DNA from: a virus
DNA length: 64,000 bases
IMG/VR virus record: IMGVR_UViG_3300018080_000139
Coordinates: 1-64,000 of that record
Direction: 5' to 3' (one strand)
A program made the position numbers and the translations under genes. The notes beneath the pieces were generated by a model. That model saw only the letters and a program-made list of their open reading frames with translations, was not told the DNA's origin and did not search any database. This document shows positions 25,901 through 45,248 of the stretch, one piece after another; the first letter of the stretch is position 1; the number at the start of each line of letters is the position of its first letter.

Positions 25901-27230
25901 TCAGTCTTTAAGCGCTGATTTGAGGGGGGCGGAGTCTATTCTATCCAGAGAAGTTCCACGAGGGATTCCGGTTGGGGACCAGTTTCAGCCAGACTTGATC
26001 GTTACTCGTCAGCACTTGATTACACTTGCCTCTTGTATGTTATATCCGGACAGCGAGAGGGAAAGACGAGTATTGGCGTATACGAAGCAGCATGGAGACG
26101 ACTACGACCAACGAGAATACCGGGAGACGCTGCAGGAATTAGAAGATGACCGCCTTTTGGACTTGTCTCATCGTGGACGCGGTGTTATTCCGCAAGGCCC
26201 AGTAACCGAAAAGGGCTATGCGTCACTTCTTAAAGCCTACAAGAATGCAGGAGTTTCGGAGGGAGACAGCGCAGGACTCTTAGCCTCTCTCGTCTCCCCC
26301 CCGGCCCCGGCTCCAACGCCGGCCGCGGGAAATGCCGAGAAAATCATGAACAAGGCGAGTACGGCCGAAAAATCTTTGGTGATCGCATACGGCACGACGG
26401 ACCCGAAATACTACTATGCCATTCCGGACCGCCTCACGGGTCTCCGACATTCTCCGGGCGAGCTGAAGAGGGCGGCGAACTCCCTCGTTCAGAAGGGGAT
26501 TTTCGAGCCGACGGGGCCCGCCGCGATCTTGCCGAATTTCAAACTGACGCAAACCGGGCGCGCCGCCGCCGACTACTTGAGGAGGCTCCTTTCGGCAAAG
26601 GAAGGGGCTAACATGCATTTGCAGAAGCTCCGTCCGACTCACGCAGTGAAAGTCAGGTTCGAAGGGCTTTCGCCAGAGGCGAAAATAGTGGCCTTTGCTG
26701 TGTGGGAGCAAGCCAAGAAGTACAAAGAGCGCTCTCGCTCTATGGGACTTAGTAACAAAGAGATAAAGGCGGCCGTCGAAGAGCTGCAAAATGCCGAGTA
26801 TTTGACGTCGAAGGAGGAACCGACTGGAGACATGTCGACCGCGCAAATACTGGATGCTATGCTGTACCTGAACGCAAAGCCCGGAAGTTACGGGGCGTAC
26901 AACGACGCTTTGGTTACGCTCCGTAACCAAAGAGCCGACCTGGCGAGGGAGAAGCCGCCGAAAGCGCCGGTCTCCTCACCTCCAGCGGAGCCGTCACCCC
27001 CGCCTGTCGAGACCATGACCGACCGCGCCGGGCAAACCTACTCCGTTTCAGACCTCGACCGGATTATCCCCGGAATCGCGAAAGACAAGGGAGCGCTGTC
27101 CATGGTGCAGGAGGCCTTCCGGGCCGGACAGATCGAAGACCAGGACCACTTGCGATTCCTGGCCGACGTTGTGAAAAATTACATGGAACTTCCTGAGAGC
27201 GTGAGGAGGACGACCGGATGGCTGATCTGA
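19962..27230 (+). CDS. giant protein A (2422 aa): array of about 18 divergent winged-helix-like repeats
   Basis: recurring L(S/T)W.EK..(L/V)...(Y/F)..A...L..KGL(I/V)...(L/I)T..G pattern separated by Pro/Ala linkers. Confidence 0.85.
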   Translation: MEDIHGLLREFYESELLLESKQHPIVRDVQLKEISWFDLAFTVFTTFAPTRDMARKDAREMGLYGASLARAWKAAAKLKDPVVREMTPPPSDVTKGGEINQDRMEAIVKRLKVPMKKIYRGKKGFEELLPIVSALKPTAVQMWAKPFKLLPKNAWPETADADMTTDLLKDLGWAEKIRLLATAAWTVRSREMNALRFGGIDLETYNNAAPALQKAGLLSKAATPTITKSGRAAADALVAQLKARTYSNAVEQLAGDAPSISPTAAHAYADEKPKAASMPWGEQVAIVSLWEIQGRNKPDRERKQDAEDFAASEVHITADSFHSAWDSLVAKGLIDEKANRLTPEGGKRHSGIFLHLGAGATKLAMIKLLNRAPAAEMKASRDLMVQGAINHLGWTGQAVVVAIDMLGGGRFQPHQIASLAYDQCGITQAEWDEGYSKAATAGGIIKSPTGLTDFGRLVSSAVQEDLGAKGSRVWAALRRAKPESYKPVAGPASASSAPKRFDELSWSEVALLIGYWNVGNHKTFDSDGQMKNKLLLYSGLDPGDYIWAHEALRQKGLVSLLGGSKTVEGAEIASQVFAFLSEKYGTSALNSFMDQMNTLVVEKPKDVRAKLSTTNKMKPKVNKPLAAAPKAGPASVKDAGLTWQEKNTLLVFYLYRGEASTKEKRDKAQKYANVGTDEYELALAKLQRLKFLSKRFAITKAGAAVAQSILKERGFEEKAHATTVNTQKVFSAVAEAGGYVSPAREREIQNQAAVDKTPSRAEDTKGAGGDLLEVEKLVMMLVAFTNPGEHDYIKSMLAKDLGRPAGEFDAAVLKLRKEGYIQPYRDAELKESGEWEPTTRGFAARDNIEDLLRAVDDTDVVEILTRNLKTKARAADVRKGVLKINSAEDLRDPEKAAIIAIEIGRNSSYQHHASRIYNDMTSWNFRDALPNLEAAFLVEEDENGKLGLTGKGGKIADEITHNRSLWDAFREYIRSGAKERPTPKIDYTQKIDINRMGILEKITLIGIYHKENIKEMQDTFARDENDYTTPTEEEFQKAAAGLLGITLGGEPIIRPEGIFYTLTPAGKATVDLLLDVMGVRSPDDAWDVLVAQLNSGQGEFDFETEGMEEPPSNEPKEISWMTFEMKAALLAVAIAQKTKMDKEDPNAAYKLLAYNVTGDDLMSVIPRLASDGQVELTDEVKWVQGPMGKTYEKEPGAPKLTIPGRATLVSLLSWHGDENAKDCFRHYTKTGSIVEPPSAAEMSAAIAAHYAKKPEEPSELSAAMDTLTAKPQDADLPKDPARMEGPAPWETLSPSAQFLLVVMNEVAPSLTSSRDYVDAYMKVAAPYGYRLGDYENDVKTLLQTSGGLIGKSDAGYFPKSEARAAAAQIVSHHGAGNVEAALKALAPQFKKARRQQASPPAGAVADLTWAEKIVALVYGASDISRGNRRWVISARGELQEFEIEDAVSSLKAKKLLSVKGSPTARTKEVATAIRNAVGETNTEKAADILAKERPKPAALPEEPAAPASFPPVSGEEPMEWIEWVALVACMAYPKRERFNEVNRRVNPQKGGGMDRNDLTEGELFLLDRGFLIDVKDSDDPQWLNFGRVPKGPVTEAGYAAVQSLLRKAGISGDNREAYNKAFEYLKKYKPNPPGEIGAREAAFLSLVSSFPREARAVLMFYLLWHNEHPNSSAKRPEIARERFGIPEKVFQAQALFLEEKGLLEANRSYISNDGRSAAWAIQNSLQVGSPAWALEALGYPERPLPAHTPPSWAGGVNDLPWDAVAFLATMYFSPQARSEGKSKQSNVLNTNTGLRTTYYYSDSSSVFQLGLVEEGKGPEGETSWKLTDKGTKMMNAVGRVFVQIHGVRDDGRDLLEVLREFFPGRGKDLPDRWGEEKPTRPITMPLPKLGEEPAEGKEPSVGRLNVEEFSAPTKLFLVWMGLAEKRSPRESALRQARSAAMTYGLKDREIAENEIVRLGLYEPATQKLSHKGVKALDALLQSLSADLRGAESILSREVPRGIPVGDQFQPDLIVTRQHLITLASCMLYPDSERERRVLAYTKQHGDDYDQREYRETLQELEDDRLLDLSHRGRGVIPQGPVTEKGYASLLKAYKNAGVSEGDSAGLLASLVSPPAPAPTPAAGNAEKIMNKASTAEKSLVIAYGTTDPKYYYAIPDRLTGLRHSPGELKRAANSLVQKGIFEPTGPAAILPNFKLTQTGRAAADYLRRLLSAKEGANMHLQKLRPTHAVKVRFEGLSPEAKIVAFAVWEQAKKYKERSRSMGLSNKEIKAAVEELQNAEYLTSKEEPTGDMSTAQILDAMLYLNAKPGSYGAYNDALVTLRNQRADLAREKPPKAPVSSPPAEPSPPPVETMTDRAGQTYSVSDLDRIIPGIAKDKGALSMVQEAFRAGQIEDQDHLRFLADVVKNYMELPESVRRTTGWLI

Positions 27231-30200
27231 AAAAGGCCTTGGAATTTGCCTTGCAGTTCAAAAGCGTGGAGGCTGCCGCCGACCATGCCGCCAAGATTCG
27301 CGAGGGTGGGGACGAAAAGAAGCTCAAAGGCGCGAAATACCAGGCAATAGTGAAGAGCATCGAGAAGGGGGGCACGAAGGCGGAAGCGGTTTTTGCGATG
27401 CGTAAGCTCGGGCCCAAGGACTTTGCTGTTCTCGCCGTGGACTTTCATGGAATGCCGCTGACGACTCTTCGAGGTGTCGTCTCCAATCCCGAACAGTATG
27501 CCGTGCGCGCGAAAATGGAGAAGTTGAAACTGTACGAGCCCGGCCGGACGGGTGTCGTCTCCGACTTCGGGGCCCAGGTCCTGAACCTCGCGTATCCCAA
27601 CAGGACGTACAAAAATGAAAAGGCCCGGATGAAGGCCATAATGGATGATGTCTACAAGGAAGCCGACGCGAAGGCCTCAACGCCGACCGAACCCCAGCCC
27701 GACCCCAAGAAAGCCCTCCCGGTCGTCCCGGTCAAAGCCAAATACAAAATAGCGCTCGAGCGTCTGACGCCCGAGGAAAAAATCGTCCTCGTTTCGATGT
27801 CGGCCTACCCCATCGGCACGAAGCCGAAAGGCTTCCCCGGGGAATCCGTCCGGACTAAAGACCAGGCCGCTCTCGCGCAACGGTACACAAAGCTCACCCC
27901 CATCGAGTTCGTGCGGATCCAGCGGGAACTCTTCCGCGGGAAGAAGCGGGAGGGGCAGCCGGTAATCCCCCCCGTCACGTTGGGGGGCCAGAGGATTTTC
28001 CAGCAGGACTTCGCCACGAAAGACTACATCCTTTCAGACCCCGGAAAGAGCGTGGCGGACTCGATCAGAAACGCGCTCAACCAGCGGACGCACATCAAGA
28101 CGCTTCAGGCCCTGAAGAAGGAGCGTGACGCCGTGCAGGCCGCCGGCGGCCCGGAGCTTTTCGCGAAGGGGGTGAAAGCGCAGACGATAAAACCGCCGAT
28201 GGGGAGGCCTGCAGCGGCCCCGCCTCGCGTTACGATCGCCGACCTGCAAAAGCTGATGGATGACTTCCGGGAAGTCTTCGACAAGGAAATCCTTGCCGTA
28301 AATCGTTATGAGGTTTGGGAGACACCGAGAACGAAGAAAGCTTATGAGACTTTGCGCGATGATGTCATTCCGCGGCTTGTCGCCTATTGGAATTCGATGC
28401 CGAAGGGTGAGTTGGCAAAGGAATATGACAAGCACATAGAGGCTTTGCAAGACAAGTCGATGGAGCGCATGGTGATTACGGCGACACAGACACGCGCTCA
28501 GTTTCTCCTTCCCCTGCAGCACTTGGCAGCCATCAATCGTTTGGGGGAGATCGACAGAGAAGAATGGAAAAACGACAAGGCCGCTCGCCTCGATTTCAAT
28601 TCACTTGTCCTCGATGAAAAGGCAATGGTTGTTGCCCTTGCCGTCCACATTTACGACCCCAAGGAAATAGAGATTTACACTGGGTTCAATGGCAGAGAGC
28701 AGGAAGATGCTCTGAAAAGCCTGAAGGATAAGAACATCGTGGTCCTTCCCCGCATGAAGGGGAACGACTTCACGCGGCCCGAGGAGTTTCGGGCTCAAAT
28801 AGACGAGCTTGTGAGGGAGGACTATCAGCATGGGGTCGCGAAGGGTGCCTTGATGCGGTTCGCAAAAAAGACTCATTTCCCTGCGCTCTACAAACCGCAC
28901 CAGGCTGCGTACATAGTCTTGCTTTGGAAAGCTCAAAAAAGTTATGGTGACGTCACCAATGAGGAGTTTTATAAAGTAGCGAAAGAGAATGGCTATGGGC
29001 GCATGGGAGTTATGTACGCGGAAGACGCGCGCCGCTGGGCGAAAAAAGAGGGGTTGATTGAGACTGGACGCTACGACGTAGGAAAACTAACGCCTTATGG
29101 GGAGGCGTTTTTCGATTACCTATACTCGATTGTCTATCGCGGAAAGACCGTACCGGAAATGCTGAAGGCCTTGCAGCCTAAAGTAGAGGTAGACAAAATC
29201 AAAGTCGATCTCGGCGCCGGCCCCCTCACCCTAGCAACATCACAAACTAAGGCCATGACCGCCGACGACACCGGCCTGTCTTGGGAAGAAGAGATGGTGG
29301 CTTTGAGCTATCTCGCCAACGTCAAAAAGTGGGGGGGCCACCCTGACTATCGGAGGTTTATGACCACCGTCGTTCTGAGGCTCATGTCCTCCGACGAGTT
29401 CGATCGGGGCCGGGAAGGCCTGCAGAAGAAAGGCCTGGTGGGGAAGAGAGATCAAGTCACGGCCAAAACCCGGGCGCTCGGAGAACTCATCAAGAAACGT
29501 CTCGGAATGCCGGAAGGAACCGTCCAGGGGGCGCGCGACGCCCTCGCGAAAAAGCGCCCCGGCGGACCGCTCAACATCCAAAACCAGGCCACGGATTCCG
29601 CGGAATCCCCGGTGGCGTCCGCCATCGGCTCGCTCATGCAGTCCCCCCAAGCGCAAGGCGAGGACATGATCCCGGGCTCTCTCCGGGTCCCCCTCTCCGC
29701 GCGCAACAAGCTTCGCGGCGCGTACACCATGAACGACGCCGAGCTGAGCCGCCTGGTTGACGACTTTATAGCGGGGAAACAATACCTCGCACTGGTTCAC
29801 CTGTCCTCGATCCTTCCTCAGAATCCGAACATCTCGCCGCGGACGCACGACGGCCTGAGAATGATGCTGAAAGACCAGGGATATGATGCCTTCGCAGGGT
29901 TCGAGGAGGCCATGGATTATGGGCTCGCCGACGAAGTGCTGCAGATAATCGGGACGGCGACGCACCCCGGGAAAGTCGTTCCGTTCGCGAAGCTCCTCCC
30001 GAGGATTCGCAAGATCGTCACCGATGACGGCAAGTGGGAAAATCGGTATGCGGCAATCCGGATCCTCAACGTCGGTCGGGACACGTCCGACGAGGCCATG
30101 GCGCAACTCGAGAAGGCCCTCGAGGACCAGGACGAGCGTGTTCGCGGAATTGCCAAAAAGACCTTGGAGAAGCTCGGGAAGTCCTCGGGCGTCCTGACCG

Positions 30201-33200
30201 CCGTGGACAAGAGAACGGCGACGGAGCCCGGGCCCGAGGAAAAGGAGCCTCCTCGCCGGCCGGACCTGAAAGACCTATCGTGGGGTGAGCTGGTGGCTCT
30301 CGGCGTGTGGTCCTATCACCCCAACGTCGACCGGGGAATGATAGGCGATCGGCTTGCCAAGTACAAGGTCGAGGCGCCGGCGACCATCCTGGCAAATCTC
30401 GAGAAAAGACCCGGAATGATTACGACGGAGGTGCCAGGCGAAGAGGACCTGGAAGGTTTCGAAACCGTCGTCCCCCTCCCCTCGGACGAAGGGATCGTGC
30501 TGTGGGCCCTGACCGACCTCGGCCGTAGTGTGGGGGAAGACGTCCGGCGCCTGGTCGGCAACCCTGCAGAGGCTTTGAAATTCCGACAAAAAATGCAAGA
30601 ATTTATCCCGGACCGGGAGTCGGCCACGTCGAAGCCGAAGCCCGCCATATTTGCCGGGCGAGAGGAGAAGCGGGAAGCCTCGGGCCTGTGGCACGAGGGG
30701 GAAAACCGGGCCGCGGACGCGCTGGTGCTTCTCCCACTCAAGGGGATTCCCTACATACTCCTCATTCAGCGAAGAGATGGGACCTATGCTCTTCCCGGCG
30801 GATTCGTCGAAGGGAACAAGCCGGGGGCGGCCGCGGCCGCCGACGCCTCGCGTGAGGAGGTGGAGCAGGAGACCGGGCTCTCGCTTCCACCGAAGGCCCG
30901 TGAAATCGGCTACTACTCCGACAAGGGGAGAGACCCCAGGTCTACGGGTGACAGGTGGGTGTCCACTCGCGTATTTGCGTACCACATGCCGGACGCTTCG
31001 AATCTGCCTCCAGTAACGCACGAAGGCGACCCGGACGGCGGGGCCCGGCACGCGCTGTGGGTGACGATTCCTGAAACTCGAAGACTCAATTTTTACGCCG
31101 ATCACGCGAAGATCCTTAAAAAGTATCTCGAAGACGAACTACGAAACATGGCGGCTGAAGGCCTGCTCCTCCACGACGTCGTGGATGAGGTCCTGTCCGG
31201 CGTGAAATCTCGCGGGAAAATCCCCGAGATGAAACTCGACCTGTCCCGGCTGGCCTGGACGGAGAAGGTAGCCCTTCTCGCACAAAACGCCTGGTGGACG
31301 TCGATTGACGAGGTGGCCGGCGGGATGAGCCATGCCGTGGACGCTACTGGGATCGGAGAAGACGAGTACGAGGACGCTCTTGGCGCCTTGATGCAAGTAC
31401 AGATGGGCGGTGAATACATCATGAAGCCCGTCGGAAGAGTCACGTCAACAGGCGTGAAGGTTGTCGATGCTTTGCTGGCCGAGCTGCAAGCAAAGTCCGT
31501 GCCGGAGGCTTTGAGAAAGCTCAAGGCCTCCCGGCCATCCACGCCTGATGCGAAGGCCGATGAGGCGGACCTATTCGCCGGAGAAGGTCGGGACATTGGC
31601 CAAAAACTGAGAATTTCGATTCGACGACCTGACCAGGAACTGACCAACGAGGAGCTGACCGCGCGCATCAAGCACGACGTGGGCCCGTCCAAGCGTCAGG
31701 AATCTTGGAGCTTCTTCGTTCAGCGTCGCAGTCTGAAGCCGGGGATTGACGCCAAGGAATATTGGGCTATCTGGGACAAGGTCCGGCCGAACCCACACGA
31801 ACGAGAAATTGAAGTCACGTTCGAGCCCACGCACAAAGAGACGCTCACCGGGGCCGAAGTGATGGTCATTCGGGATAAAGAGAGTCGCGGCGGTTATCTG
31901 GCCATTTTCGCGTCCGGGGCAACCTCACAGATCACGCGGCACACACCCAAACAAAATTTCGTTTCCCTGAAAGACGGAACCCCGTTCAACTGGGGTTTCC
32001 CGCCGGAGGAAAAGAAGGCTCCGGCGTCGAAGGTTGTCTTGACTCCGGAGGGCAAAAGCCTGTCAGGGGAAGTCCAGGACTTTCTTCAGAAAATCGACGA
32101 AAAGCAGAAAGTAGCTCTCTTGGTCGCCGCAATCCCAGAAATTTGGAGTAAAGCGAACGCTCGGGACTACAAAGAGGCAGTTTATCTCGAGGCTACCGGG
32201 GGAGACGATGAGGACTACTGGAGGCAGATAAGCAGGCTCGAGGAGCTGGGGGGGACCGATTCGCATGGCGTGGTGACGGAATTCGGGGCCGAGGTGGTCA
32301 AAGGCATCACCGGCGGGAGGAGCCCGATTGAATTTCTACATTACAACAAGGGGGTAACGTGGCGGGTGTCTCACTATTTCTACGGCGAGACCTTGCCTCC
32401 CCGGCTGGGCCCTGCGATTTTGGCGATCCTGCTTTCTCGCAGCAGTCCGCGCGACGAGTTCCAAAAAATGAAGTGGAGCATCGAGTGGGTGGAGTACGGG
32501 AACAAGTACTTGCGTGAGCAAAACCTCCTGGACTCCTCCAACAAATTGACTAAAGAGGGGATGTTTACGGCCTACGAGATTTTCGCCTCCGCGGGGACCA
32601 GCAAACTTTCGGAAATTCTTGCGAGGCTCGACCGGCAACTGCGTTTGGACTCAAAGCCAGGGCACGATTACGCCGTCGAAGTGGCGGCCCCTCCGGGGTC
32701 TTTCGAGATGGGCATGGGAAAAATGAAGCTTCGTAAGGGTTTCTCTTCCCCCGTTTCCGTAATGCGAAAAAAAGAAGGGGAACTCCCCTTGCCGAAGGAA
32801 CTGGAAGGGTTCAAGTTGTCCGGCAAGCTTGCAAGCGTGCCAAAGCTTGTGGCTCAGATGTTCCGAATAAAGAGACCACTCAAGAAACGGAAAGAGATCT
32901 ATGAGAAGCTGCATGTAATCTTGCGTGAGGAACTGGAAGACCGGCTCAACGACGCCGGTGTGCATTCGGCCTATTACGCCGGCGGGAAGATGTCCGATTA
33001 CCGGGGTGGGGTTTACAGTGGGCTCCTCCGCGTCCTGACTCGTAAGGATGCGCTGGGAAAGCCGGAGACCGAAAAAGATATATTGATGAATGCGCGTTCC
33101 GTGCTGTGGAGTGCGGAAAAGGCCCAAGCCATGGTGGACGATCTTATCGCAAAGTACGGCAAGAAACAAAAGGAAGGCCTGGAGAGCATTTTGCCGCACG

Positions 33201-34957
33201 AGGAGCCGAAGTCCGTACCTCTCGCCGATGTCTTGAAGGCCTCGTACCTCAAGATAGTTGCCGGCCAACCGTACTCGGCCGCGGTCTACCTGTCCGAACT
33301 GTTCCGGGAGGCCCGCAAGCTTAACGCTACCTTGTCCGTGGAAGAGTTCAAAAAAACAATCGAGGACCTGGAAAAGCAGGTCGTAATCGACGCCGTTCCG
33401 GTGAACGATCGGACGATGGTGAAAAGTGGCGAGTACGCGATCACGCAGGCCGACGGAGGCATCATAGACTTTATCATGTGGCGGGAGACAGCGCAAAAGC
33501 GGGCGCAAAAGTCTTCGGTTCCCCCGCAGACATCGAAAGAGCCGGAGCTTTCCAGGGAAGAACAGGTTGCCTTGCTCGTGCTGACGCTGAAGGCCTTAAA
33601 TCCCATCCAAAAGAAGGAGAAGGCCTACCTGTACGGGCTTCCTCACGGCAAGTTCGAAGACACCCTTCTCTCTCTCAGGGAAAAGGGGTATGTCGCCCAG
33701 GGGACGAGCGCGAATACGGCCGGAAAAGACCGCGCCACAGCGATCGCGAAGGAACTCAAGGCGAAGGACGCTATAGGCGCCCTCGAAAAGATCTCGGAGG
33801 CGCGACCGGACCTCTCTCCGACGGCCGCGGCCGTTTCTGCAATCGGCGCGCCTTCGCCAAAACTGGCGTCCGTGGGCAGCCTCTCGTGGGAGGAGAAAGT
33901 TGCGCTCCTGCTTATCTACTCGACGAAGGGGAGCGCGCGGCCCGGCGCTGGGGAGCGCATGGCCGGACTCAAACGAGATGCCTTCTTTGCCGCTGAGAAG
34001 ACTCTCATCGACAAAGGCTTTGCCCAGGCGGCTCCCGGGGAAAAATCGGCCCTCATGACCGAAGAAGGCGTCAAGGCCGTAGAGCGTATGATCGCCGATT
34101 CCGGGCTGCAATACGCCGAACAGCTCATCAAGCAGATGTCCCGAAAGGATGAGGGCCTGGAGTTCTCCCGGCGGAGCTATTCGGATCCGGAAGCCTTTCC
34201 CACATTGCACCGGCTTTACATCGAGGAAGCCGAAAAGCAACCCATGATGGCGGGAAATCTTACTATCTCAGAACTTTACGATGGCATGGTTGCCAAGGGC
34301 TTTTCGAATGACGTCGAAAAGTTTAAATCGGCTTTGCTCGGATGGATGAAGGAGCGAAAACTCACACTCTGGGTGGTCGACTCTCCCCGCCTCGAGCCGA
34401 GATCGAAGACGGATGGCATACCCAGTGATCGGGGCCTTTTGTATTTTGTTCGGATGCCGCGCGAAGGCACCCCTGGCGCGCCGGCGCCGGCGCCATCGGC
34501 ACCCACAAGTCAACCGACGGACCCCGACGCAAGCAAGCCTTCAGTTTCCGCAGCAAAGAAGAAGTACACTTTGGATTTCGATAAGGCCGGCGATAAACGG
34601 AAGAGTTTTCCATATGTTGCACGTCTGTTCCTCGACGACCGCGGGGCGGTGAAGCGGGACTTCAAGGACCTCAATCGAGAGTATTTGGGAAAATATGATG
34701 TCCGCGTGTACGGTAGGTACACCGTGGAAGAGGGGGAGGTGCTGGAAATCCAAGAAGGGGAGGGATCGTGGAGAGATAAGGACCGGCATATTTACATCGT
34801 ATTGGCCGGCGAAGAGCGTTACGTGGGGAAGGCGACAGACGTTAAAGTACATCGTCAGATCACAGAATATTTGGGCGGCAAGATAGAAGTGGAAGATATT
34901 GCGTTTAAGAGGCCTCTTATACAACCACCACAGGAGGACCCCAGATTGGAAGATTAG
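27218..34957 (+). CDS. giant protein B (2579 aa): about 11 wHTH-like repeats, a HEAT repeat, a Nudix domain and two further wHTH modules
   Basis: same repeat (LSWEEKVALL, LAWTEKVALL, LSREEQVALL); LEKALEDQDERVRGIAKKTLEKLG (HEAT); YALPGGFVE...EQETGL...GRDPR (Nudix). Confidence 0.85.
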   Translation: MADLKKALEFALQFKSVEAAADHAAKIREGGDEKKLKGAKYQAIVKSIEKGGTKAEAVFAMRKLGPKDFAVLAVDFHGMPLTTLRGVVSNPEQYAVRAKMEKLKLYEPGRTGVVSDFGAQVLNLAYPNRTYKNEKARMKAIMDDVYKEADAKASTPTEPQPDPKKALPVVPVKAKYKIALERLTPEEKIVLVSMSAYPIGTKPKGFPGESVRTKDQAALAQRYTKLTPIEFVRIQRELFRGKKREGQPVIPPVTLGGQRIFQQDFATKDYILSDPGKSVADSIRNALNQRTHIKTLQALKKERDAVQAAGGPELFAKGVKAQTIKPPMGRPAAAPPRVTIADLQKLMDDFREVFDKEILAVNRYEVWETPRTKKAYETLRDDVIPRLVAYWNSMPKGELAKEYDKHIEALQDKSMERMVITATQTRAQFLLPLQHLAAINRLGEIDREEWKNDKAARLDFNSLVLDEKAMVVALAVHIYDPKEIEIYTGFNGREQEDALKSLKDKNIVVLPRMKGNDFTRPEEFRAQIDELVREDYQHGVAKGALMRFAKKTHFPALYKPHQAAYIVLLWKAQKSYGDVTNEEFYKVAKENGYGRMGVMYAEDARRWAKKEGLIETGRYDVGKLTPYGEAFFDYLYSIVYRGKTVPEMLKALQPKVEVDKIKVDLGAGPLTLATSQTKAMTADDTGLSWEEEMVALSYLANVKKWGGHPDYRRFMTTVVLRLMSSDEFDRGREGLQKKGLVGKRDQVTAKTRALGELIKKRLGMPEGTVQGARDALAKKRPGGPLNIQNQATDSAESPVASAIGSLMQSPQAQGEDMIPGSLRVPLSARNKLRGAYTMNDAELSRLVDDFIAGKQYLALVHLSSILPQNPNISPRTHDGLRMMLKDQGYDAFAGFEEAMDYGLADEVLQIIGTATHPGKVVPFAKLLPRIRKIVTDDGKWENRYAAIRILNVGRDTSDEAMAQLEKALEDQDERVRGIAKKTLEKLGKSSGVLTAVDKRTATEPGPEEKEPPRRPDLKDLSWGELVALGVWSYHPNVDRGMIGDRLAKYKVEAPATILANLEKRPGMITTEVPGEEDLEGFETVVPLPSDEGIVLWALTDLGRSVGEDVRRLVGNPAEALKFRQKMQEFIPDRESATSKPKPAIFAGREEKREASGLWHEGENRAADALVLLPLKGIPYILLIQRRDGTYALPGGFVEGNKPGAAAAADASREEVEQETGLSLPPKAREIGYYSDKGRDPRSTGDRWVSTRVFAYHMPDASNLPPVTHEGDPDGGARHALWVTIPETRRLNFYADHAKILKKYLEDELRNMAAEGLLLHDVVDEVLSGVKSRGKIPEMKLDLSRLAWTEKVALLAQNAWWTSIDEVAGGMSHAVDATGIGEDEYEDALGALMQVQMGGEYIMKPVGRVTSTGVKVVDALLAELQAKSVPEALRKLKASRPSTPDAKADEADLFAGEGRDIGQKLRISIRRPDQELTNEELTARIKHDVGPSKRQESWSFFVQRRSLKPGIDAKEYWAIWDKVRPNPHEREIEVTFEPTHKETLTGAEVMVIRDKESRGGYLAIFASGATSQITRHTPKQNFVSLKDGTPFNWGFPPEEKKAPASKVVLTPEGKSLSGEVQDFLQKIDEKQKVALLVAAIPEIWSKANARDYKEAVYLEATGGDDEDYWRQISRLEELGGTDSHGVVTEFGAEVVKGITGGRSPIEFLHYNKGVTWRVSHYFYGETLPPRLGPAILAILLSRSSPRDEFQKMKWSIEWVEYGNKYLREQNLLDSSNKLTKEGMFTAYEIFASAGTSKLSEILARLDRQLRLDSKPGHDYAVEVAAPPGSFEMGMGKMKLRKGFSSPVSVMRKKEGELPLPKELEGFKLSGKLASVPKLVAQMFRIKRPLKKRKEIYEKLHVILREELEDRLNDAGVHSAYYAGGKMSDYRGGVYSGLLRVLTRKDALGKPETEKDILMNARSVLWSAEKAQAMVDDLIAKYGKKQKEGLESILPHEEPKSVPLADVLKASYLKIVAGQPYSAAVYLSELFREARKLNATLSVEEFKKTIEDLEKQVVIDAVPVNDRTMVKSGEYAITQADGGIIDFIMWRETAQKRAQKSSVPPQTSKEPELSREEQVALLVLTLKALNPIQKKEKAYLYGLPHGKFEDTLLSLREKGYVAQGTSANTAGKDRATAIAKELKAKDAIGALEKISEARPDLSPTAAAVSAIGAPSPKLASVGSLSWEEKVALLLIYSTKGSARPGAGERMAGLKRDAFFAAEKTLIDKGFAQAAPGEKSALMTEEGVKAVERMIADSGLQYAEQLIKQMSRKDEGLEFSRRSYSDPEAFPTLHRLYIEEAEKQPMMAGNLTISELYDGMVAKGFSNDVEKFKSALLGWMKERKLTLWVVDSPRLEPRSKTDGIPSDRGLLYFVRMPREGTPGAPAPAPSAPTSQPTDPDASKPSVSAAKKKYTLDFDKAGDKRKSFPYVARLFLDDRGAVKRDFKDLNREYLGKYDVRVYGRYTVEEGEVLEIQEGEGSWRDKDRHIYIVLAGEERYVGKATDVKVHRQITEYLGGKIEVEDIAFKRPLIQPPQEDPRLED

Positions 34958-36962: not shown

Positions 36963-37829
36963 ATGGAGCCAGCCCCTCTCGTTTTCAGTGGTGGTGGCTC
37001 GAAAGTGCCAATCCATGTCGGAGCGCTGCAGGCGGTCGAAGACGTTGGAGTTGAAGTCTCCTCCTACTTGGGGACATCGGCCGGCGCGATCGTGGCCGCC
37101 CTGGCGGCCGACGGGATGAAAGCGCGGGAAATGTGGTCTCTTGTTCGTACTCTCGACTTTTCGAAGTTTGTGAAGAGGACCTGGCCGGAAGTGGTCGCTA
37201 ATTTTTTCTTCGGCCGCGGTCTCGTGTCCGGAGCGTATCGCCATGATTTTTTTCGGGAGTTGTTCGGCATCAAGACTATGGCGGACTTGCGAAATCTTAA
37301 GGTTTTCGGGCATTCGCTGGCGCGGCGGCGATGGGTGGAAATCTCGGCGACCTCGTACCCGGGGATGCCGGTTGCCTTGGCTTTGCAGATTTCCACGGCA
37401 ATTCCGATCCTGTTCAGCCCCGTTGGCATTGGCAAGGTCTCTCGGAAGACAAAGCGGGAATTCGACCGGGATTGGCTGGTTGATGGAGGGGTCTCCAAGA
37501 ATTTTCCGGTCGATCGCGCTGGCCGTCGCTTTGTCGGTCATCTGATAGACTCACCGGAAGGCCCGGATTGGCAGGACATCTCTGTGCGCTCACTATTTCG
37601 CGAGACGTTTTCTCAGCTTGTGGGCGCCAACGCCGAGGAGTCTATCCGTAACGCCAGCCCGAATGGGCTCGTTGTCCGCTCGACTTATCGAAAATCCGTA
37701 ACCGATTTTTCGGTGAGCGCGCAGGAAAAAGAAAATATGTTTGATCTCGGTTACGCCGGGATGTCTGAAAGCTTGAAAATATGGCTCAAGGAGGAGTGTT
37801 ATGATAAAAGGCCCGCAGAAGCCCGGTGA
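36963..37829 (+). CDS. patatin-like phospholipase
   Basis: FSGGGSK oxyanion loop, GTSAG nucleophile, DGG catalytic Asp; start position uncertain. Confidence 0.9.
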   Translation: MEPAPLVFSGGGSKVPIHVGALQAVEDVGVEVSSYLGTSAGAIVAALAADGMKAREMWSLVRTLDFSKFVKRTWPEVVANFFFGRGLVSGAYRHDFFRELFGIKTMADLRNLKVFGHSLARRRWVEISATSYPGMPVALALQISTAIPILFSPVGIGKVSRKTKREFDRDWLVDGGVSKNFPVDRAGRRFVGHLIDSPEGPDWQDISVRSLFRETFSQLVGANAEESIRNASPNGLVVRSTYRKSVTDFSVSAQEKENMFDLGYAGMSESLKIWLKEECYDKRPAEAR

Positions 37830-38178
37830 CGCCCCGGTCAAAGCGCCGGCGGAAGACAGCGACGTCAAGCGAGACGGGAACCGCTTCATCGACGCGATTT
37901 TGGCCGCCATGCAAAAGCAGGTGGATGAAGACCTCGCTTCGATACGCGAGGAGATGAACGAGATGCGGAAGCAATTCGAGGATTTGAAGTCAGAGAACGC
38001 GACGAAGCGGACGGAGCTGCTCAAGCAAGTGGACGAGAAGAACGCGGCTGCGCGAAAAGACGTCGACGACTCGATGGCACAGTATCAAACCTCGATAGAC
38101 AACAGCGTTCAGGCCGTCGCGAATCTCGAGCGACGGCTGACAGGGCTGAAAGTGAGTCTCGAAGTCCCCTCGGCGTAA
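37801..38178 (+). CDS. coiled-coil protein
   Basis: AAGGAGGAG RBS; heptad-rich helix. Confidence 0.7.
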   Translation: MIKGPQKPGDAPVKAPAEDSDVKRDGNRFIDAILAAMQKQVDEDLASIREEMNEMRKQFEDLKSENATKRTELLKQVDEKNAAARKDVDDSMAQYQTSIDNSVQAVANLERRLTGLKVSLEVPSA

Positions 38179-38199
38179 AAGCAGTGAAGGAGGTTTGCC

Positions 38200-38643
38200 A
38201 TGGAGAACGGCGGAAACAAAGAGCCGGACAGCCAAATAAAAAGCCTGGAAGACTTGAAATCTGGAGTGGATGACGACCTTCCTAAGGGGGATCCAGACAC
38301 TTACGTTCGTGAGTATCAAACGAAGACGCGAGAGGGACGCTGGACAACGCTTATCGAGACCGCGCGAGAGGGTGTGAAGATCACGAAGCGGATAAGCCGA
38401 ACGCTCGACGAAATAAGCTCACGGCTTGAGTTCATGTCGGACCTGGGGGTTCTTCTGTGCGCCGTAATGCTGGGGGCAAAGATCGTCACTCTCGGGATGG
38501 AGACAGTCACCGGCTGGACCGACGTCCTGTTCGCGCTGACTTGTACAATTATGTGGATGAACAACGGCGCGCGCCTTCCAAAATCCAAGACGGCCGTGGT
38601 CGCGAAGAAGATCAAGGACACCTTCACGAACTTGCAGGATTAG
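38200..38643 (+). CDS. two-TM membrane protein (holin-like or effector-like)
   Basis: AGGAGG RBS; LGVLLCAVMLGAKIV and VLFALTCTIMW hydrophobic segments; basic C-terminal tail. Confidence 0.65.
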   Translation: MENGGNKEPDSQIKSLEDLKSGVDDDLPKGDPDTYVREYQTKTREGRWTTLIETAREGVKITKRISRTLDEISSRLEFMSDLGVLLCAVMLGAKIVTLGMETVTGWTDVLFALTCTIMWMNNGARLPKSKTAVVAKKIKDTFTNLQD

Positions 38644-38650
38644 GATTGAG

Positions 38651-40171
38651 GTGGAAATGCCCGAATTATTATATCTCGACAAGTACGGGGAGAAGAAGAC
38701 TCTCGAAGTCAAGGAGCGTGCGACAATCGGCACTTTCGACGACTGCGATGTGTGCTTGTCTTCCTCAGCGCTCGACGAAAGGCATGTTCTGATTTTCAGC
38801 GCGGAGTGTGGCTGGGAGGACGAATTTTCCGAGGCGGACGCCGGCAAGTACTTCGTGAAAAACGTGGGGTCCCGCCCTGTTTTCGTCCACCATGTAATCC
38901 GGAGAGCTAGCGAAGTGCTGGAGCCTGGAGCGAGATCAGGCCTGTCCGCAAAAGTTTCCATTTCGGTTGGGACTGCACGCGAGGGAGACCAGGTTACGGT
39001 CGTGTGGATGAATGCCGAAGCGGAATACGCCGACGAAGATTACCGGATTGTCCGGCTGAAAGCCAGCAGTGGAAAAGACGAGCTTCTCGATCTCGAGGTG
39101 CGAAGGCATCTCGAAAATTACTATCTGCGCTTGCGAGGGGTGGCCGCGAAGCCTGGGGATGTCGCGCGGGCGACGGCTCTTTTTCTGCGAGAGTCTTTCG
39201 ACGTGTCCATGGCCGCCATCTATCGCCGGACCGGGCCGAAATGGAAGTCCGCGGCCGTGTCCCGGAGGCTGAAGAGCGATGAGTACGTACCGTCGACGAC
39301 GATTTTCCGTCGGGCCATCGAGGAAAAGACGCCACTCCTCGTTCGTTTCGAAGACGGCGTGGTAAAAATCGACGAAGAGGCCTCGACACCTTCGCTTTCC
39401 GTTGTGGCGTCGCCGGCAAAGCGCGCCGTACTAATCCCTCTCTTTCAGGGGGATAGCGTTTTCGGAATGCTGTACTTGGACACGCGCGACGAGACCATCT
39501 TGACACAAAAGGACTATGACGTTCTGGTCCGGATGGTTCACCGCGGGGGGGTGGGAGCCGTTCTCGCCGGCTATCTCGCCGAGGACGCGGAGGCGAAGCA
39601 GTTTTTGCTTTTTCGGGATTCTCCACCGCGTGGTGAATACTGGCGTTACGTTTTCGCGGCGGAGAGGGCGCCTTACCCCCTTACGGGAGTTAAGGTTGAC
39701 AAGGACCGCGGGATTATGCGCTTTCTTTTCGGACACGTTTCCGATAAGCTCTCTACGGTCTGCCGGGTCAAGAGCTTTTGCGCGGGGGCGATGGCCGCCG
39801 GCGTCGAGGATTTGCTCACCATCGCCACCAGGTACTCGGTTTCGATCGACGACTCCGTCGATCTGCTTAAAGCTGGGCTGTCGCACATAACAGTGGCTTT
39901 CCCGGATGAGGGGGATATACTCGACGACACGGACGCCGAGACGCGGACCGTTCGCGTCGGCCTTTTCGGGGACGTGTATGCCTACATGCGGAAAGACGGT
40001 AAGGTGTATGAGTTTCGAGACGACGAGGAAGGCTACAGGGATTTCGAATTCGCCGTCGGGGACTACTTGGTGATTTCTCTTCGCCGCATTCCCGATAGAT
40101 TTCTCACCGATCGAGTCCGAGAGCTGAAAAAGCACAGTCGCGACTTCTTTTTGCTCGCAAGGGAGAGATGA
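38651..40171 (+). CDS. FHA-like + GAF + degenerate SpoIIE/PP2C-like domain protein
   Basis: TIGTFDDCDVCL...ERHVLI (FHA-like); PSTTIFRRAIEEK...LIPLFQGDSVFGMLYLD (GAF); FLFGHVSDK and VGDYLVIS (PP2C-like, catalytic Asp residues missing). Confidence 0.65.
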   Translation: MEMPELLYLDKYGEKKTLEVKERATIGTFDDCDVCLSSSALDERHVLIFSAECGWEDEFSEADAGKYFVKNVGSRPVFVHHVIRRASEVLEPGARSGLSAKVSISVGTAREGDQVTVVWMNAEAEYADEDYRIVRLKASSGKDELLDLEVRRHLENYYLRLRGVAAKPGDVARATALFLRESFDVSMAAIYRRTGPKWKSAAVSRRLKSDEYVPSTTIFRRAIEEKTPLLVRFEDGVVKIDEEASTPSLSVVASPAKRAVLIPLFQGDSVFGMLYLDTRDETILTQKDYDVLVRMVHRGGVGAVLAGYLAEDAEAKQFLLFRDSPPRGEYWRYVFAAERAPYPLTGVKVDKDRGIMRFLFGHVSDKLSTVCRVKSFCAGAMAAGVEDLLTIATRYSVSIDDSVDLLKAGLSHITVAFPDEGDILDDTDAETRTVRVGLFGDVYAYMRKDGKVYEFRDDEEGYRDFEFAVGDYLVISLRRIPDRFLTDRVRELKKHSRDFFLLARER

Positions 40172-41223
40172 TGCAGCCTACGCAGCAACCGGCTTTAGAC
40201 GAGTTTCTGTCGACGGTAGACGCGATTGCTGGAGGAGACCACTCCCCGGACACGCTGCAAAAGATGTGCGTTCTGTGTTCGCCTGACTATGAGCCCACGC
40301 GCGAAGACAAGGTTCGATTGGGTGGCGAAGCGATTGTCCTAAAAGTATCAAATACTGTGCTTGATCGCGCAGAAGTATTAAAAATACCCCGACGCGCACT
40401 GGTCGAGAATAAGAGGCTTCTGGCACGGTATTTTCGGGGAATGCAACTGCAAAGCCGTGTCCACCGCTACGTTCGCGCCGGAGTCCCAGAAGTGTACGCA
40501 GCACGATATAATGCCCCGTTTGTCAGCATGGAGTGGATTCGCGGGCTGGCACTACTCCGCTTCCTCGAGCAAGCGGGCCAGCGAGAGTCCGCCCGGTTTT
40601 TTGTTAGCATCTTGGACTTGGTAGCCAGCCTGCATGATCGAATGGTGATTCATCGGGATCTTACACCCTCTAATATACTCGTGGGGGTGGATCCTGTAAC
40701 GGAAGCTCTTTGCCCTTACCTTTTGGATTTCGGCCTCGCAAAGCGCGTGCAAGGCGAATCAACGCTTACGGGAATTGGAGCAAAGCTGGGGACGAACGGC
40801 TGGGCGAGTCCGGACCAGCTCGATGATGCCGCGCGTGCTGATTTCCTGGACGACGTGTACACGGCGGGGCGTTTGCTCTACGTGATGGCTACTTATGCCA
40901 CGACAAAAGCCTGTCCGCGGAAAGATCGCGATTATGACGAGCGGCTTTTACCTGGGGAGTGGCTTCCAATTTTTCAGGCGGCGACCGCTCCACGAGAGGC
41001 TCGCTACCAATCTATCAGGGAGCTTCGGGCTGCCGTCGCTCGTGTCGTGGGGATCGAGGACGTAAGTATTGTTAGGGTGCCCGACCCCATTTCGGTTTTC
41101 TCAGAAGATCTACGGTCGACCAGAAAGATTCGGAAAGTTTCGCCCCCTCCCGAGAGTACGGAAGGGGATGACCTCGTAGACCTTTTCGTAAAAGCGGTAA
41201 GGTCTGCAATTTATAACTCGTAG
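40168..41223 (+). CDS. Hanks-type Ser/Thr protein kinase
   Basis: EVLKI, MEWIRG, IHRDLTPSNILV, LLDFGLAK, GTNGWASPDQ, DVYTAG. Confidence 0.92.
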   Translation: MMQPTQQPALDEFLSTVDAIAGGDHSPDTLQKMCVLCSPDYEPTREDKVRLGGEAIVLKVSNTVLDRAEVLKIPRRALVENKRLLARYFRGMQLQSRVHRYVRAGVPEVYAARYNAPFVSMEWIRGLALLRFLEQAGQRESARFFVSILDLVASLHDRMVIHRDLTPSNILVGVDPVTEALCPYLLDFGLAKRVQGESTLTGIGAKLGTNGWASPDQLDDAARADFLDDVYTAGRLLYVMATYATTKACPRKDRDYDERLLPGEWLPIFQAATAPREARYQSIRELRAAVARVVGIEDVSIVRVPDPISVFSEDLRSTRKIRKVSPPPESTEGDDLVDLFVKAVRSAIYNS

Positions 41224-43430: not shown

Positions 43431-45248
43431 GTGATGACTACGACAACGCCGAAATGGTTTCTCTACGACTCGGTTCTACTGGATTACTCCATTACCGAGA
43501 GCGCTGAAGGGCTCTTGATTTTGCGCGGGAAGGTGCAGCACGCCGACATAAAAAACGACAACAACCGGGTGTATCGTTACTCCGTGCTGGACAAGGTTTT
43601 GAAAGCGCAAAAGGTAAGAGACCGGCTGCGTCGGCGTCTCATGGTCGGGGAGCTGGAGCATCCTGAAGACGGCATCACGAAATTCTATCGAGTTTCGCAT
43701 CTGGTGACGGATCTCCGTTGGGGAGAGGGAAAGGTCGTCTTGGGCTCCTTCGAGATTTTCGATGACGTTCCGCATGGAATAATCGTGGCGCGCCTGATCC
43801 GTCGGGGGGTTCCTGTGGGAGCCTCCACGCGCGGGAAGGGGACGTCTCACGAGCAGGATGACGTCGAATTCGTGGACGACAACTATGATCTGGAGACGGT
43901 CGACATTGTCTACAACCCTTCGACTCCGGGAGCGTACCCCAAGCCCGTGAAAGTTGCCATGTCCGGGGAACTTCCGACCTGGGAGCGAGATGAGGAGAAG
44001 ACATCCAGAAAACTCGTGAGCCTGGCCGATGATGCGGGTCGGGTTCGCGTGGCCGCTTCACGCGGAAAAGCTAGCGATGAGGAGATACGGCGTTGTGAGA
44101 GGGACCTCTCGGGGGTGTCCGGACATGGCGACGCGCTCCTCGAGAAGTTTTGTGAGTTAATCAACAGGGACTTGAAGGAGGCCAGAAAAATGGCGAAAAG
44201 CAAGTTGACCGTCCCCGTCCAAGCGGTGAGCCAGATGATAGAGGCGATCCGGTCAGACGAGGAGGAATACAAACCCCCCACCGAGGAGCGAAAGAAGCGG
44301 CGTAAGACCGAGCAGGAGGGGGACGAGTACGAAGAGCGGAAAAAGCGCCGGCGCAAATCGGAGCAGGCCGAATACGAAGACGAGTACGAAGAGCAAGATG
44401 ACGAAGAAGGCTTGGACGACGAGGAGTACGAAGAGCGCAAGCGGCGTCGGAAAATGGAGGCGAAGAAGAAACGCCAGCGCAAATCGGAGCAGGCCGAATA
44501 CGAAGACGAGTATGAGGAGCAAGATGACGAAGAAGGCTTGGACGACGAGGACGAGTACGAGGAGCAGGACGAGCCCGAAGAGGAGTACGAAGAGCAGGAC
44601 GACGAAGAAGAAAAGCCCGCTCCTCCTCCCCCCGTCGAAAAGAAAAGCTTTCTCTCTCGCAAGGAGAGGAAATGCGAATCCGCCGGCGTGCTGAGAAAGG
44701 CTCTCGTCCGCGAGCGCAAGCTCAAAAACGCGCTCGTCGAGCGCGCGCGTCAGCTTCGCGCGGCAAACTCCGTGTTGGCGTCGAAGCTCGACAGCTCTGT
44801 GGACTTGATCGCAAAAGTGGTCGAGCGGGTGGAGGCGGAGAAAAAGCGCCGTATCCTCTCGCGGGCGACGGCCGAAAACCCGGAGATGGGAAATCTGCTC
44901 CCGGTGCTGGAGCGGTGCAGCGCACGCGAACTCGAAGAGGCTGTCCGTTTGGTGCAGGAAAGCAGGGAAACCAAAATGCGGGAAGAGGAAAGCCGTCGTC
45001 AGGAGGAAGCAGCTCGACGTACCCCGCCTTCGCGCAGAAGGTACACACCGCCGCCGGCCAGAACGCGAGAACTGATGGTCGAATCTCAGGATCTCCCCGC
45101 CGAGGACCTTCCGAAAAAGCAAGTGAAGGAAAACAAACTGTCTTTGGGAAGGATTCTCGAGGAGAGCCGCCACGGGGCGGATAGCGACTATTCGCGAATG
45201 GCCGATAACCTGATCGACGGCGGGCACCTTCCGCCCGGATGGATGTAG
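43431..45248 (+). CDS. prohead core protease (T4 gp21-like) fused to an acidic coiled-coil scaffold (gp22-like)
   Basis: ADIKNDNNRVY, GELEHP, VSHLV, GASTRGKGT, TVDIVYNPSTPGA; directly upstream of the major capsid gene. Confidence 0.9.
   Translation: MMTTTTPKWFLYDSVLLDYSITESAEGLLILRGKVQHADIKNDNNRVYRYSVLDKVLKAQKVRDRLRRRLMVGELEHPEDGITKFYRVSHLVTDLRWGEGKVVLGSFEIFDDVPHGIIVARLIRRGVPVGASTRGKGTSHEQDDVEFVDDNYDLETVDIVYNPSTPGAYPKPVKVAMSGELPTWERDEEKTSRKLVSLADDAGRVRVAASRGKASDEEIRRCERDLSGVSGHGDALLEKFCELINRDLKEARKMAKSKLTVPVQAVSQMIEAIRSDEEEYKPPTEERKKRRKTEQEGDEYEERKKRRRKSEQAEYEDEYEEQDDEEGLDDEEYEERKRRRKMEAKKKRQRKSEQAEYEDEYEEQDDEEGLDDEDEYEEQDEPEEEYEEQDDEEEKPAPPPPVEKKSFLSRKERKCESAGVLRKALVRERKLKNALVERARQLRAANSVLASKLDSSVDLIAKVVERVEAEKKRRILSRATAENPEMGNLLPVLERCSARELEEAVRLVQESRETKMREEESRRQEEAARRTPPSRRRYTPPPARTRELMVESQDLPAEDLPKKQVKENKLSLGRILEESRHGADSDYSRMADNLIDGGHLPPGWM
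44351..44551 (+). repeat. 75-bp direct repeat within the scaffold (RKSEQAEYEDEYEEQDDEEGLDDE)
   Basis: copies at 44351-44425 and 44477-44551. Confidence 0.85.

Follow-up and report, generated by a model that had tools for sequence, protein, structure and literature searches.

Several cellular signalling systems place a PknB-like kinase beside FHA- and PP2C-type partners. They include PknB-PstP-FhaA/B of Mycobacterium tuberculosis, PpkA-PppA-Fha1 of the type VI secretion threonine-phosphorylation pathway, and the Hanks kinase/PP2C/FHA signalling set of the Deinococcus DRA0332-0334 operon (bioRxiv 10.64898/2026.01.23.701218). A related arrangement is carried by an uncultured phage, at positions 36963 to 41223 of the first 64 kb (the window, i.e. 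the whole 64,000-nucleotide stretch analysed) of IMG/VR virus record IMGVR_UViG_3300018080_000139, which is linear, 95,867 bp long and about 63% complete (CheckV). Five co-directional + strand open reading frames (ORFs), upstream of the prohead protease gene, encode a patatin-like phospholipase, two small proteins, a protein with an FHA-GAF-PP2C fold (hereafter the partner) and a Hanks-type Ser/Thr kinase. A preliminary description of the locus had listed five tightly packed genes, and all five ORFs were found. Compared to the cellular sets, the phage-borne version has its FHA and PP2C domains fused with a GAF domain, both of them without working residues, while its kinase lacks a membrane or sensor domain as well as the Glu of helix alpha-C. 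Our analysis indicates that the partner belongs to an old, rare pseudoenzyme family, in which the loss of functional residues is conserved.

The domain plan of the partner has a cellular counterpart of its own. An Acidobacteriota metagenome-assembled genome (MAG; G002), from which genuine SpoIIE domains were taken for comparison, encodes a 588-aa protein (L088:316-2079) that is a textbook FHA-GAF-SpoIIE (FHA 3e-20, GAF 3e-12, SpoIIE 2e-50), with the same three domains, in the same order, and the same SpoIIE/RsbU-type fold as the phage partner. The profile of the partner family is colinear with this protein over residues 3-366 (hhalign E 3e-4), through the FHA domain, the GAF domain, the P..GW linker and the first two PP2C motifs. 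Because a canonical protein colinear with the family exists in a cellular genome, FHA-GAF-SpoIIE appears to be the ancestral architecture of the partner, which would descend from a cellular phosphatase of this type. The phage family differs from its cellular counterpart in lacking the GR, S(xx)H and NG motifs of FHA and the GGD, GDVSG and TDG Asp residues of PP2C, in having a shorter segment between TDG and DD, and in failing all Pfam cut-offs. Two large plasmids were also searched for genuine SpoIIE domains, and none was found in them. The canonical gene (C1:939892-941655) has no kinase within 10 kb. The same MAG yielded 77 Pkinase and 18 SpoIIE matches, and in one case, on C3 at about 3.12 Mb, another SpoIIE gene and a kinase are 2 kb apart.

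The partner gene occupies 38657-40171 on the + strand and encodes 504 aa from ATG 38657, in an ORF that opens at GTG 38651 (506 aa). Since GAGGTGG lies just upstream of ATG 38657 and homologues begin with MPEL, this ATG is probably the real start, and the GTG part of the ribosome site. Sequence profiles barely register the domains. Pfam gave sub-threshold matches to FHA (14.1 bits versus a cut-off of 20.7) and GAF (17.9 versus 22.4; E 0.0045), no PF07228 (SpoIIE) match was found in the partner or anywhere in the record, and PADLOC returned no match for the partner.

To examine the fold, we built an AlphaFold2 (AF2) model from the homologue alignment (predicted local distance difference test, pLDDT, 76). 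Foldseek, run on the full-length model, returned mainly matches to the GAF domain, via phytochrome entries, while an exhaustive VIA-align structural search separated all three domains. Residues 1-123 (38651-39019, + strand) form a degenerate FHA domain, matching the FHA domain of DgcB (6hbz; Z 13.4, root-mean-square deviation 2.1 A over 98 residues) and many further FHA entries. Residues 141-310 (39071-39580, + strand) form a GAF domain, the best-preserved part of the protein, with Z 14.8 to 3p01 and further matches to the GAF domains of PDE2A/5/6. Residues 321-506 (39611-40168, + strand) adopt a SpoIIE/RsbU-type PP2C fold, closest to the RsbU domain of Rv1364c (3ke6; Z 14.8, 2.5 A over 167 residues), with SiaA, RssB, SpoIIE, RsbX and tPphA also matched (3pu9, 6k4e, 5ucg and 3w40 among the entries). 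In the ESM Atlas, residues 320-506 fall with SpoIIE/RsbU clusters, both by language-model features (0.92) and when the domain's own structure model is compared (template modelling score 0.62-0.71). The FHA-GAF-SpoIIE layout of the preliminary description is therefore recovered domain by domain, including the PP2C fold of the C-terminal domain that it had singled out for checking. The C-terminal domain alone showed no significant sequence similarity to seven genuine SpoIIE domains (hhalign E 0.17), and its predicted PP2C identity rests on structure and colinearity.

The fold is retained, and the residues that would make it work are not. When the family was aligned with canonical proteins (P0023, L088), the FHA motif GR was found to read G-x, SxxH reads DxxH and NG is lost, so that only the His is kept; the Arg, Ser and Asn that bind phosphothreonine are replaced in every family member. 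In the PP2C-like domain, GGD has become P-x-x-S/G, the Asp of GDVSG is replaced by His in the phage partner and by F, Y, T, I or S in other members, and TDG by LRR in the phage partner and mostly by P-x-x in the others. Three of the four canonical metal-ligand positions could be aligned, with the DD motif placed by secondary-structure register only, and all three of these are variable across the family. Among nine full-length proteins, the only invariants of the C-terminal domain are W331, P343, G354 and R504, with no invariant Asp. The losses that had been read from the phage sequence by itself (GR, SxxH and NG in FHA; GDVSG and TDG in PP2C) thus hold up in alignment. Four columns of the PP2C-like domain are mostly acidic, at residues 366, 412, 471 (D471) and 498 (D498). 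The column at residue 366 holds D or E in five of eight homologues and Lys in the phage partner; that at residue 412 holds D in all eight homologues and His in the phage partner.

How old is this degeneration? An exhaustive phmmer search of 1.84 billion representatives returned 19 relatives of the partner, eight of them full-length (483-534 aa). Seven of the eight share 27-33% identity with the phage protein (E 5e-71 to 1e-33); the most distant, P0014, shares 24% (E 1e-12). All 19 are singletons, the majority of them from Logan, JGI or ENA assemblies and one from an NCBI record, and the longest of their contigs measures 138,780 bp. Nothing further came from a word-indexed homologue search with the partner, from tblastn of the partner and P0014 against phage records, from IMG/VR locus scans with the partner, the kinase, P0006 and alignment A3, from metagenome scans (A3, P0007) or from a GTDB scan (P0014). 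Because the losses are family-wide and the full three-domain length is kept, the degeneration appears to be ancient and maintained, as opposed to a recent capture followed by decay. That losses common to eight full-length homologues (20-33% identity) coexist with the whole length argues for selection on a non-catalytic role. We reject recent capture of the pair from a host in view of the deep divergence (27-33% among most members) together with losses in every full-length member. These data do not support the captured host signalling pair proposed in the preliminary description, in that the partner represents a small, deeply diverged family whose degeneration is old and conserved.

Several relatives of the partner are shorter, at 341-433 aa. 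Metagenomic sequences P0015, P0016, P0018-P0020 and P0022 have the same degenerate FHA and the GAF domain, with the C-terminal domain shorter or absent. Given that the pseudo-FHA-GAF core occurs in these shorter relatives, it may be the older unit.

The kinase gene lies at 40171-41223 on the + strand and encodes 350 aa (351 aa from ATG 40168). Its product matches Pfam Pkinase (PF00069) with 56.2 bits, against a cut-off of 31.7, and phrog_2361 (1e-22), and the top fold match of its AF2 model (pLDDT 80, predicted template modelling score 0.78) is M. tuberculosis PknB. In an alignment with cellular kinases, Lys72, HRD Asp164, Asn169 and DFG Asp187 are invariant, which agrees with the preliminary description, where the catalytic Lys, HRD..N and DFG were listed as kept and the kinase was taken to be active. 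The activation loop carries Thr residues. Judged by the usual Lys/HRD/DFG rule, this enzyme is probably active. The caveat to this prediction, absent from the earlier description, is the alpha-C Glu. At the corresponding (RFxRE) position, which falls within the predicted alpha-C helix of residues 82-99, both the kinase and its relative P0026 have Gly (Gly91). In addition, the Gly-rich loop reads GGEAIV, and Thr stands at the usual Lys position of the catalytic loop, where two cellular homologues have Ser. The missing alpha-C Glu gives reason to think that the kinase may need its partner.

The ancestry of the kinase likewise offers little to the idea of a captured pair. P0026, encoded on a 3,968-bp ENA contig, is its sole close relative (39% identity), and after it come generic cellular kinases with identities of about 30-34%. 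Shared with P0026 are two N-terminal helices with a conserved CxxC, a disordered linker (residues 303-331) and a C-terminal helix (residues 332-350); the N-terminal helices and the C-terminal helix are candidate docking elements. Phage-encoded Hanks kinases are rare, with 21 of 50,697 phage records matching this one, only distantly.

The junction between the two genes suggests that their products are made in step. The partner stop codon, TGA 40169-40171, overlaps both candidate kinase starts: ATG 40171 shares one base with it, and ATG 40168 gives a four-base ATGA overlap. A Shine-Dalgarno element, AGGGAG at 40160-40165, precedes both ATGs and lies inside the last codons of the partner. ATG 40171 is probably the start used. 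The pair is, by these sequence features, arranged for coupled translation, as had been proposed earlier.

PP2C folds that serve in binding are known elsewhere. In E. coli RssB, a PP2C-type domain acts as a protein-binding adaptor module, and Pseudomonas aeruginosa RssB is among the structural matches of the PP2C-like domain of the partner (3eq2, 3es2; Z about 13). In metazoa, PHLPP2 is a pseudo-PP2C protein (PMC12002173). Both retain the PP2C fold after catalysis was lost and use it in protein binding, and so they offer a conceptual parallel to the partner, which differs in having neither receiver nor leucine-rich repeat domains and in showing no detectable sequence relationship to them. By the same logic, the phage pseudoenzyme would be a non-catalytic regulatory or scaffolding subunit of the kinase, made in step with it; its well-preserved GAF domain may sense a ligand, while FHA and PP2C, both dead, may provide docking surfaces. 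The kinase would then phosphorylate host or phage proteins late in infection.

The three genes upstream of this pair resemble a different described system. For Wolbachia phage WO, a lytic cassette has been proposed in which a patatin is paired with a protein of <150 aa that combines a transmembrane (TM) span and a coiled coil with a charged C-terminus; an ankyrin protein also belongs to it. The cassette sits next to a structural module, and no endolysin is recognised in the phage (PMC9203015; PMC3173496). Similarly, at our locus a patatin and small TM and coiled-coil proteins are encoded beside structural (head) genes. The likeness has limits. No ankyrin match was found among the neighbours scanned, coiled coil and TM span belong to different proteins, the genes are upstream of head rather than tail genes, and in the 50,697 phage records no patatin is similar in sequence to this one.

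The patatin gene (36963-37829, + strand; an alternative upstream start, ATG 36897, would give 310 aa) matches PF01734 with 95.3 bits (E 7e-27; cut-off 27.7). Its product keeps the oxyanion motif GGGSK (GGGxK), the nucleophile motif GTSAG (GxSxG) and the Asp of DGG, and by these motifs it is predicted to be catalytically intact, so that the patatin named in the preliminary description is well founded. It had no match in PHROGs or, by tblastn, in the phage records. The same description drew a parallel to effectors of CBASS-type systems, for which we saw no signal. The patatin scored 16.1 bits against the model of the cyclic GMP-AMP-activated CBASS lipase (NF041079), far below the cut-off of 200, and 16 bits against the anti-phage phospholipase model (cut-off 400). 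No cyclase was found among the neighbours scanned, and no search for a CD-NTase was made over the whole record.

The second gene of the five (37801-38178, + strand) overlaps the 3' end of the patatin gene by 29 nt, with GGAGGAG 4 nt ahead of its ATG 37801, and encodes a 125-aa coiled-coil protein with weak matches only, to coiled-coil families (EzrA, TRIM_CC and others). The third (38200-38643, + strand) has a strong Shine-Dalgarno sequence, GAAGGAGG, ahead of ATG 38200 and encodes a small membrane protein of 147 aa, recognised by its hydrophobicity profile. Its hydrophilic N-terminal half is followed by one clear hydrophobic span at about residues 78-103 (KD19 maximum 2.12), a second, weaker span near 0.9 on the same measure, and a basic, Lys-rich C-terminal tail. 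The protein was previously called 2-TM; the first span is clear, and the weakness of the second leaves this label plausible rather than secure. No family match was found in Pfam, PHROGs, PADLOC or NCBIfam, and tblastn gave no match in phage records. By shape only, the protein is holin-like.

The explanation we favour, tentatively and at a little under an even chance, is that two modules lie next to each other in the late operon. One would serve lipid-based lysis or entry and the other would be a kinase with a non-catalytic regulatory subunit. By analogy to phage WO, the patatin, the coiled-coil protein and the basic-tailed membrane protein would attack host membrane lipid at lysis, and possibly at entry. 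Binding of the partner to the kinase, the activity and targets of the kinase, any ligand, and the lytic role of the patatin module are what we infer in this scheme. A more specific version, which seems improbable to us, would make the partner, with all three of its domains turned to non-catalytic use, a ligand-gated allosteric subunit needed to switch on a kinase that by itself cannot form the Lys-Glu pair. Through the GAF domain the phage would sense a small molecule of the host, perhaps a cyclic nucleotide, and phosphorylation would time lipid-based lysis or block host defence.

A number of observations weigh against two modules with these roles. Lysis genes usually sit at the end of the late operon, and here the patatin module is upstream of the head genes. 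The lack of any lysozyme, amidase or other peptidoglycan hydrolase among the 10 ORFs scanned at the late-operon end, which counts in favour of a lytic patatin module, comes from part of a record that is itself incomplete. On the side of the kinase, the absent alpha-C Glu and the degenerate Gly-rich loop mean that the enzyme may be weak or inactive. On the side of the partner, D471, D498 and the residue-412 column are acidic in most members, and this conservation makes a non-canonical activity possible. Finally, co-occurrence does not tie the pair together across genomes. The kinase clade has two members, compared to eight full-length homologues plus shorter forms for the partner family. No kinase match lay on a contig equal in length to one that carries a partner homologue, an indirect comparison and hence a weak negative, and the 80 best IMG/VR kinase loci had no partner-family neighbour within 6 kb (A1 hidden Markov model versus ORFs, none below E 0.03). 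These indirect negatives are weak, since relatives below about 35% identity escape the word index.

The acidic columns raise the question of whether the partner is dead at all. It could be a true antagonist of the kinase, with a non-canonical phosphatase or phospho-binding activity, given that most members have acidic residues at 366, 412 (D in eight of nine), 471 and 498, and that in six of nine the conserved FHA His follows a basic residue. However, no Asp is invariant, the aligned metal-ligand positions vary, the FHA Arg, Ser and Asn are gone from every member, and in the phage protein itself K and H occupy two of the acidic columns that the family conserves. We consider such an activity a slim prospect, the least probable of the explanations weighed here. 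Rather more can be said for the proposal in the preliminary description that all five genes form one cassette, in which the kinase and its dead regulator govern a phospholipase/membrane output that serves lysis timing or superinfection exclusion. All five run in one direction, each directly after the last with a short gap or overlap between them, and a kill-type enzyme and a signalling pair are both present. Yet every gene of the late operon is packed just as tightly, no shared regulatory feature marks the five (promoter- and terminator-like sites at the locus were not above shuffled controls), and no FHA-binding or phospho-regulated feature is visible in the patatin. The patatin trio is thus tied to the kinase pair by adjacency alone, which is common to every gene of the operon, and a single cassette seems unlikely. 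The best reading of the stretch is of two adjacent modules in one long late operon.

PD-T4-6 and Stk2 are single-gene anti-phage defence kinases of hosts or prophages, and the locus could conceivably be phage-borne defence of this kind, an abortive-infection kinase with a patatin effector directed at competing phages. PD-T4-6 models gave the best match of the kinase domain among the libraries tried, including PADLOC (E 1.9e-28, 98 bits, above the Pfam and PknB-family scores of 56 and 75), models for Stk2 and MAD6 also match, and the patatin weakly matches defence phospholipase models. The PD-T4-6 models, however, are essentially kinase-domain models without a curated cut-off, so any Hanks kinase would match them, and the likeness covers the generic kinase core only. 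The patatin falls far short of the two lipase cut-offs given above, the partner is invisible to PADLOC, and, in contrast to PD-T4-6 and Stk2, the phage kinase has a coupled pseudoenzyme partner and belongs to the structural late operon of an apparently lytic myovirus. Defence or superinfection exclusion is accordingly doubtful in our estimation. Virion-packaged cargo, to which we attach an equally low likelihood, would have the kinase, partner and patatin packed in the head, ejected with the DNA and acting early, together with two giant proteins encoded upstream. In T4-like phages, internal head proteins are encoded near the prohead protease and capsid genes, and the genes described here sit between the giant ORFs (2422 and 2579 aa) and the genes for the prohead protease and major capsid protein. 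The T4-like portal gene, on the other hand, is far downstream (record 77293-78981), and the gene order is therefore not T4-like. Defence and packaged cargo are both possible, with less support than two adjacent modules for lipid-based lysis and for a regulated kinase.

In the literature, we found no phage kinase described as having a pseudoenzyme partner dedicated to it. To our knowledge, pseudophosphatase regulation of kinases has so far been known mainly from eukaryotes. Should the pair work in the way proposed, a prokaryotic virus would provide a clear example of a kinase under pseudophosphatase control, together with a compact, expressible two-protein system for studying the reuse of dead FHA and PP2C domains. 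The intact patatin, together with the small membrane protein, would add a further case for the proposed role of lipid hydrolysis in phage exit from, or entry into, the cell.

The rest of the record is that of a deep, uncultured myovirus lineage. It encodes a T4-like major head protein (phrog_138, 1e-50), a prohead protease, neck proteins and a contractile sheath, with a family-A DNA polymerase on the opposite strand. Its capsid protein is at most 36% identical to that of any of the 50,697 phage records and had no relative in the IMG/VR locus scan. Beyond about 13.9 kb, nearly every gene in the window is on the + strand, with minimal spacing, so that the close packing of the five genes is not distinctive. 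Each of the last four of the five has its own strong Shine-Dalgarno site. G+C content at third codon positions is 0.56 in the kinase gene and 0.63 in the patatin gene, compared to 0.70-0.78 in structural genes, a weak hint only.

The two neighbouring giant ORFs (window 19962-34957) lie directly upstream of the small genes preceding the patatin gene and have only small Pfam matches, to wHTH-PRTase_assc, EarA-like and HEAT_2. A papain-family (C1) peptidase is encoded after the tail-fibre region (record 73241-74110), and the portal gene (Pfam 1.2e-34), of T4 type, follows the head and tail genes, away from those for the protease and capsid. The prohead protease ORF (window 43431-45248) is 605 aa long, with the protease family match confined to residues 23-364, and it seems to carry a fused C-terminal extension, perhaps a scaffold.

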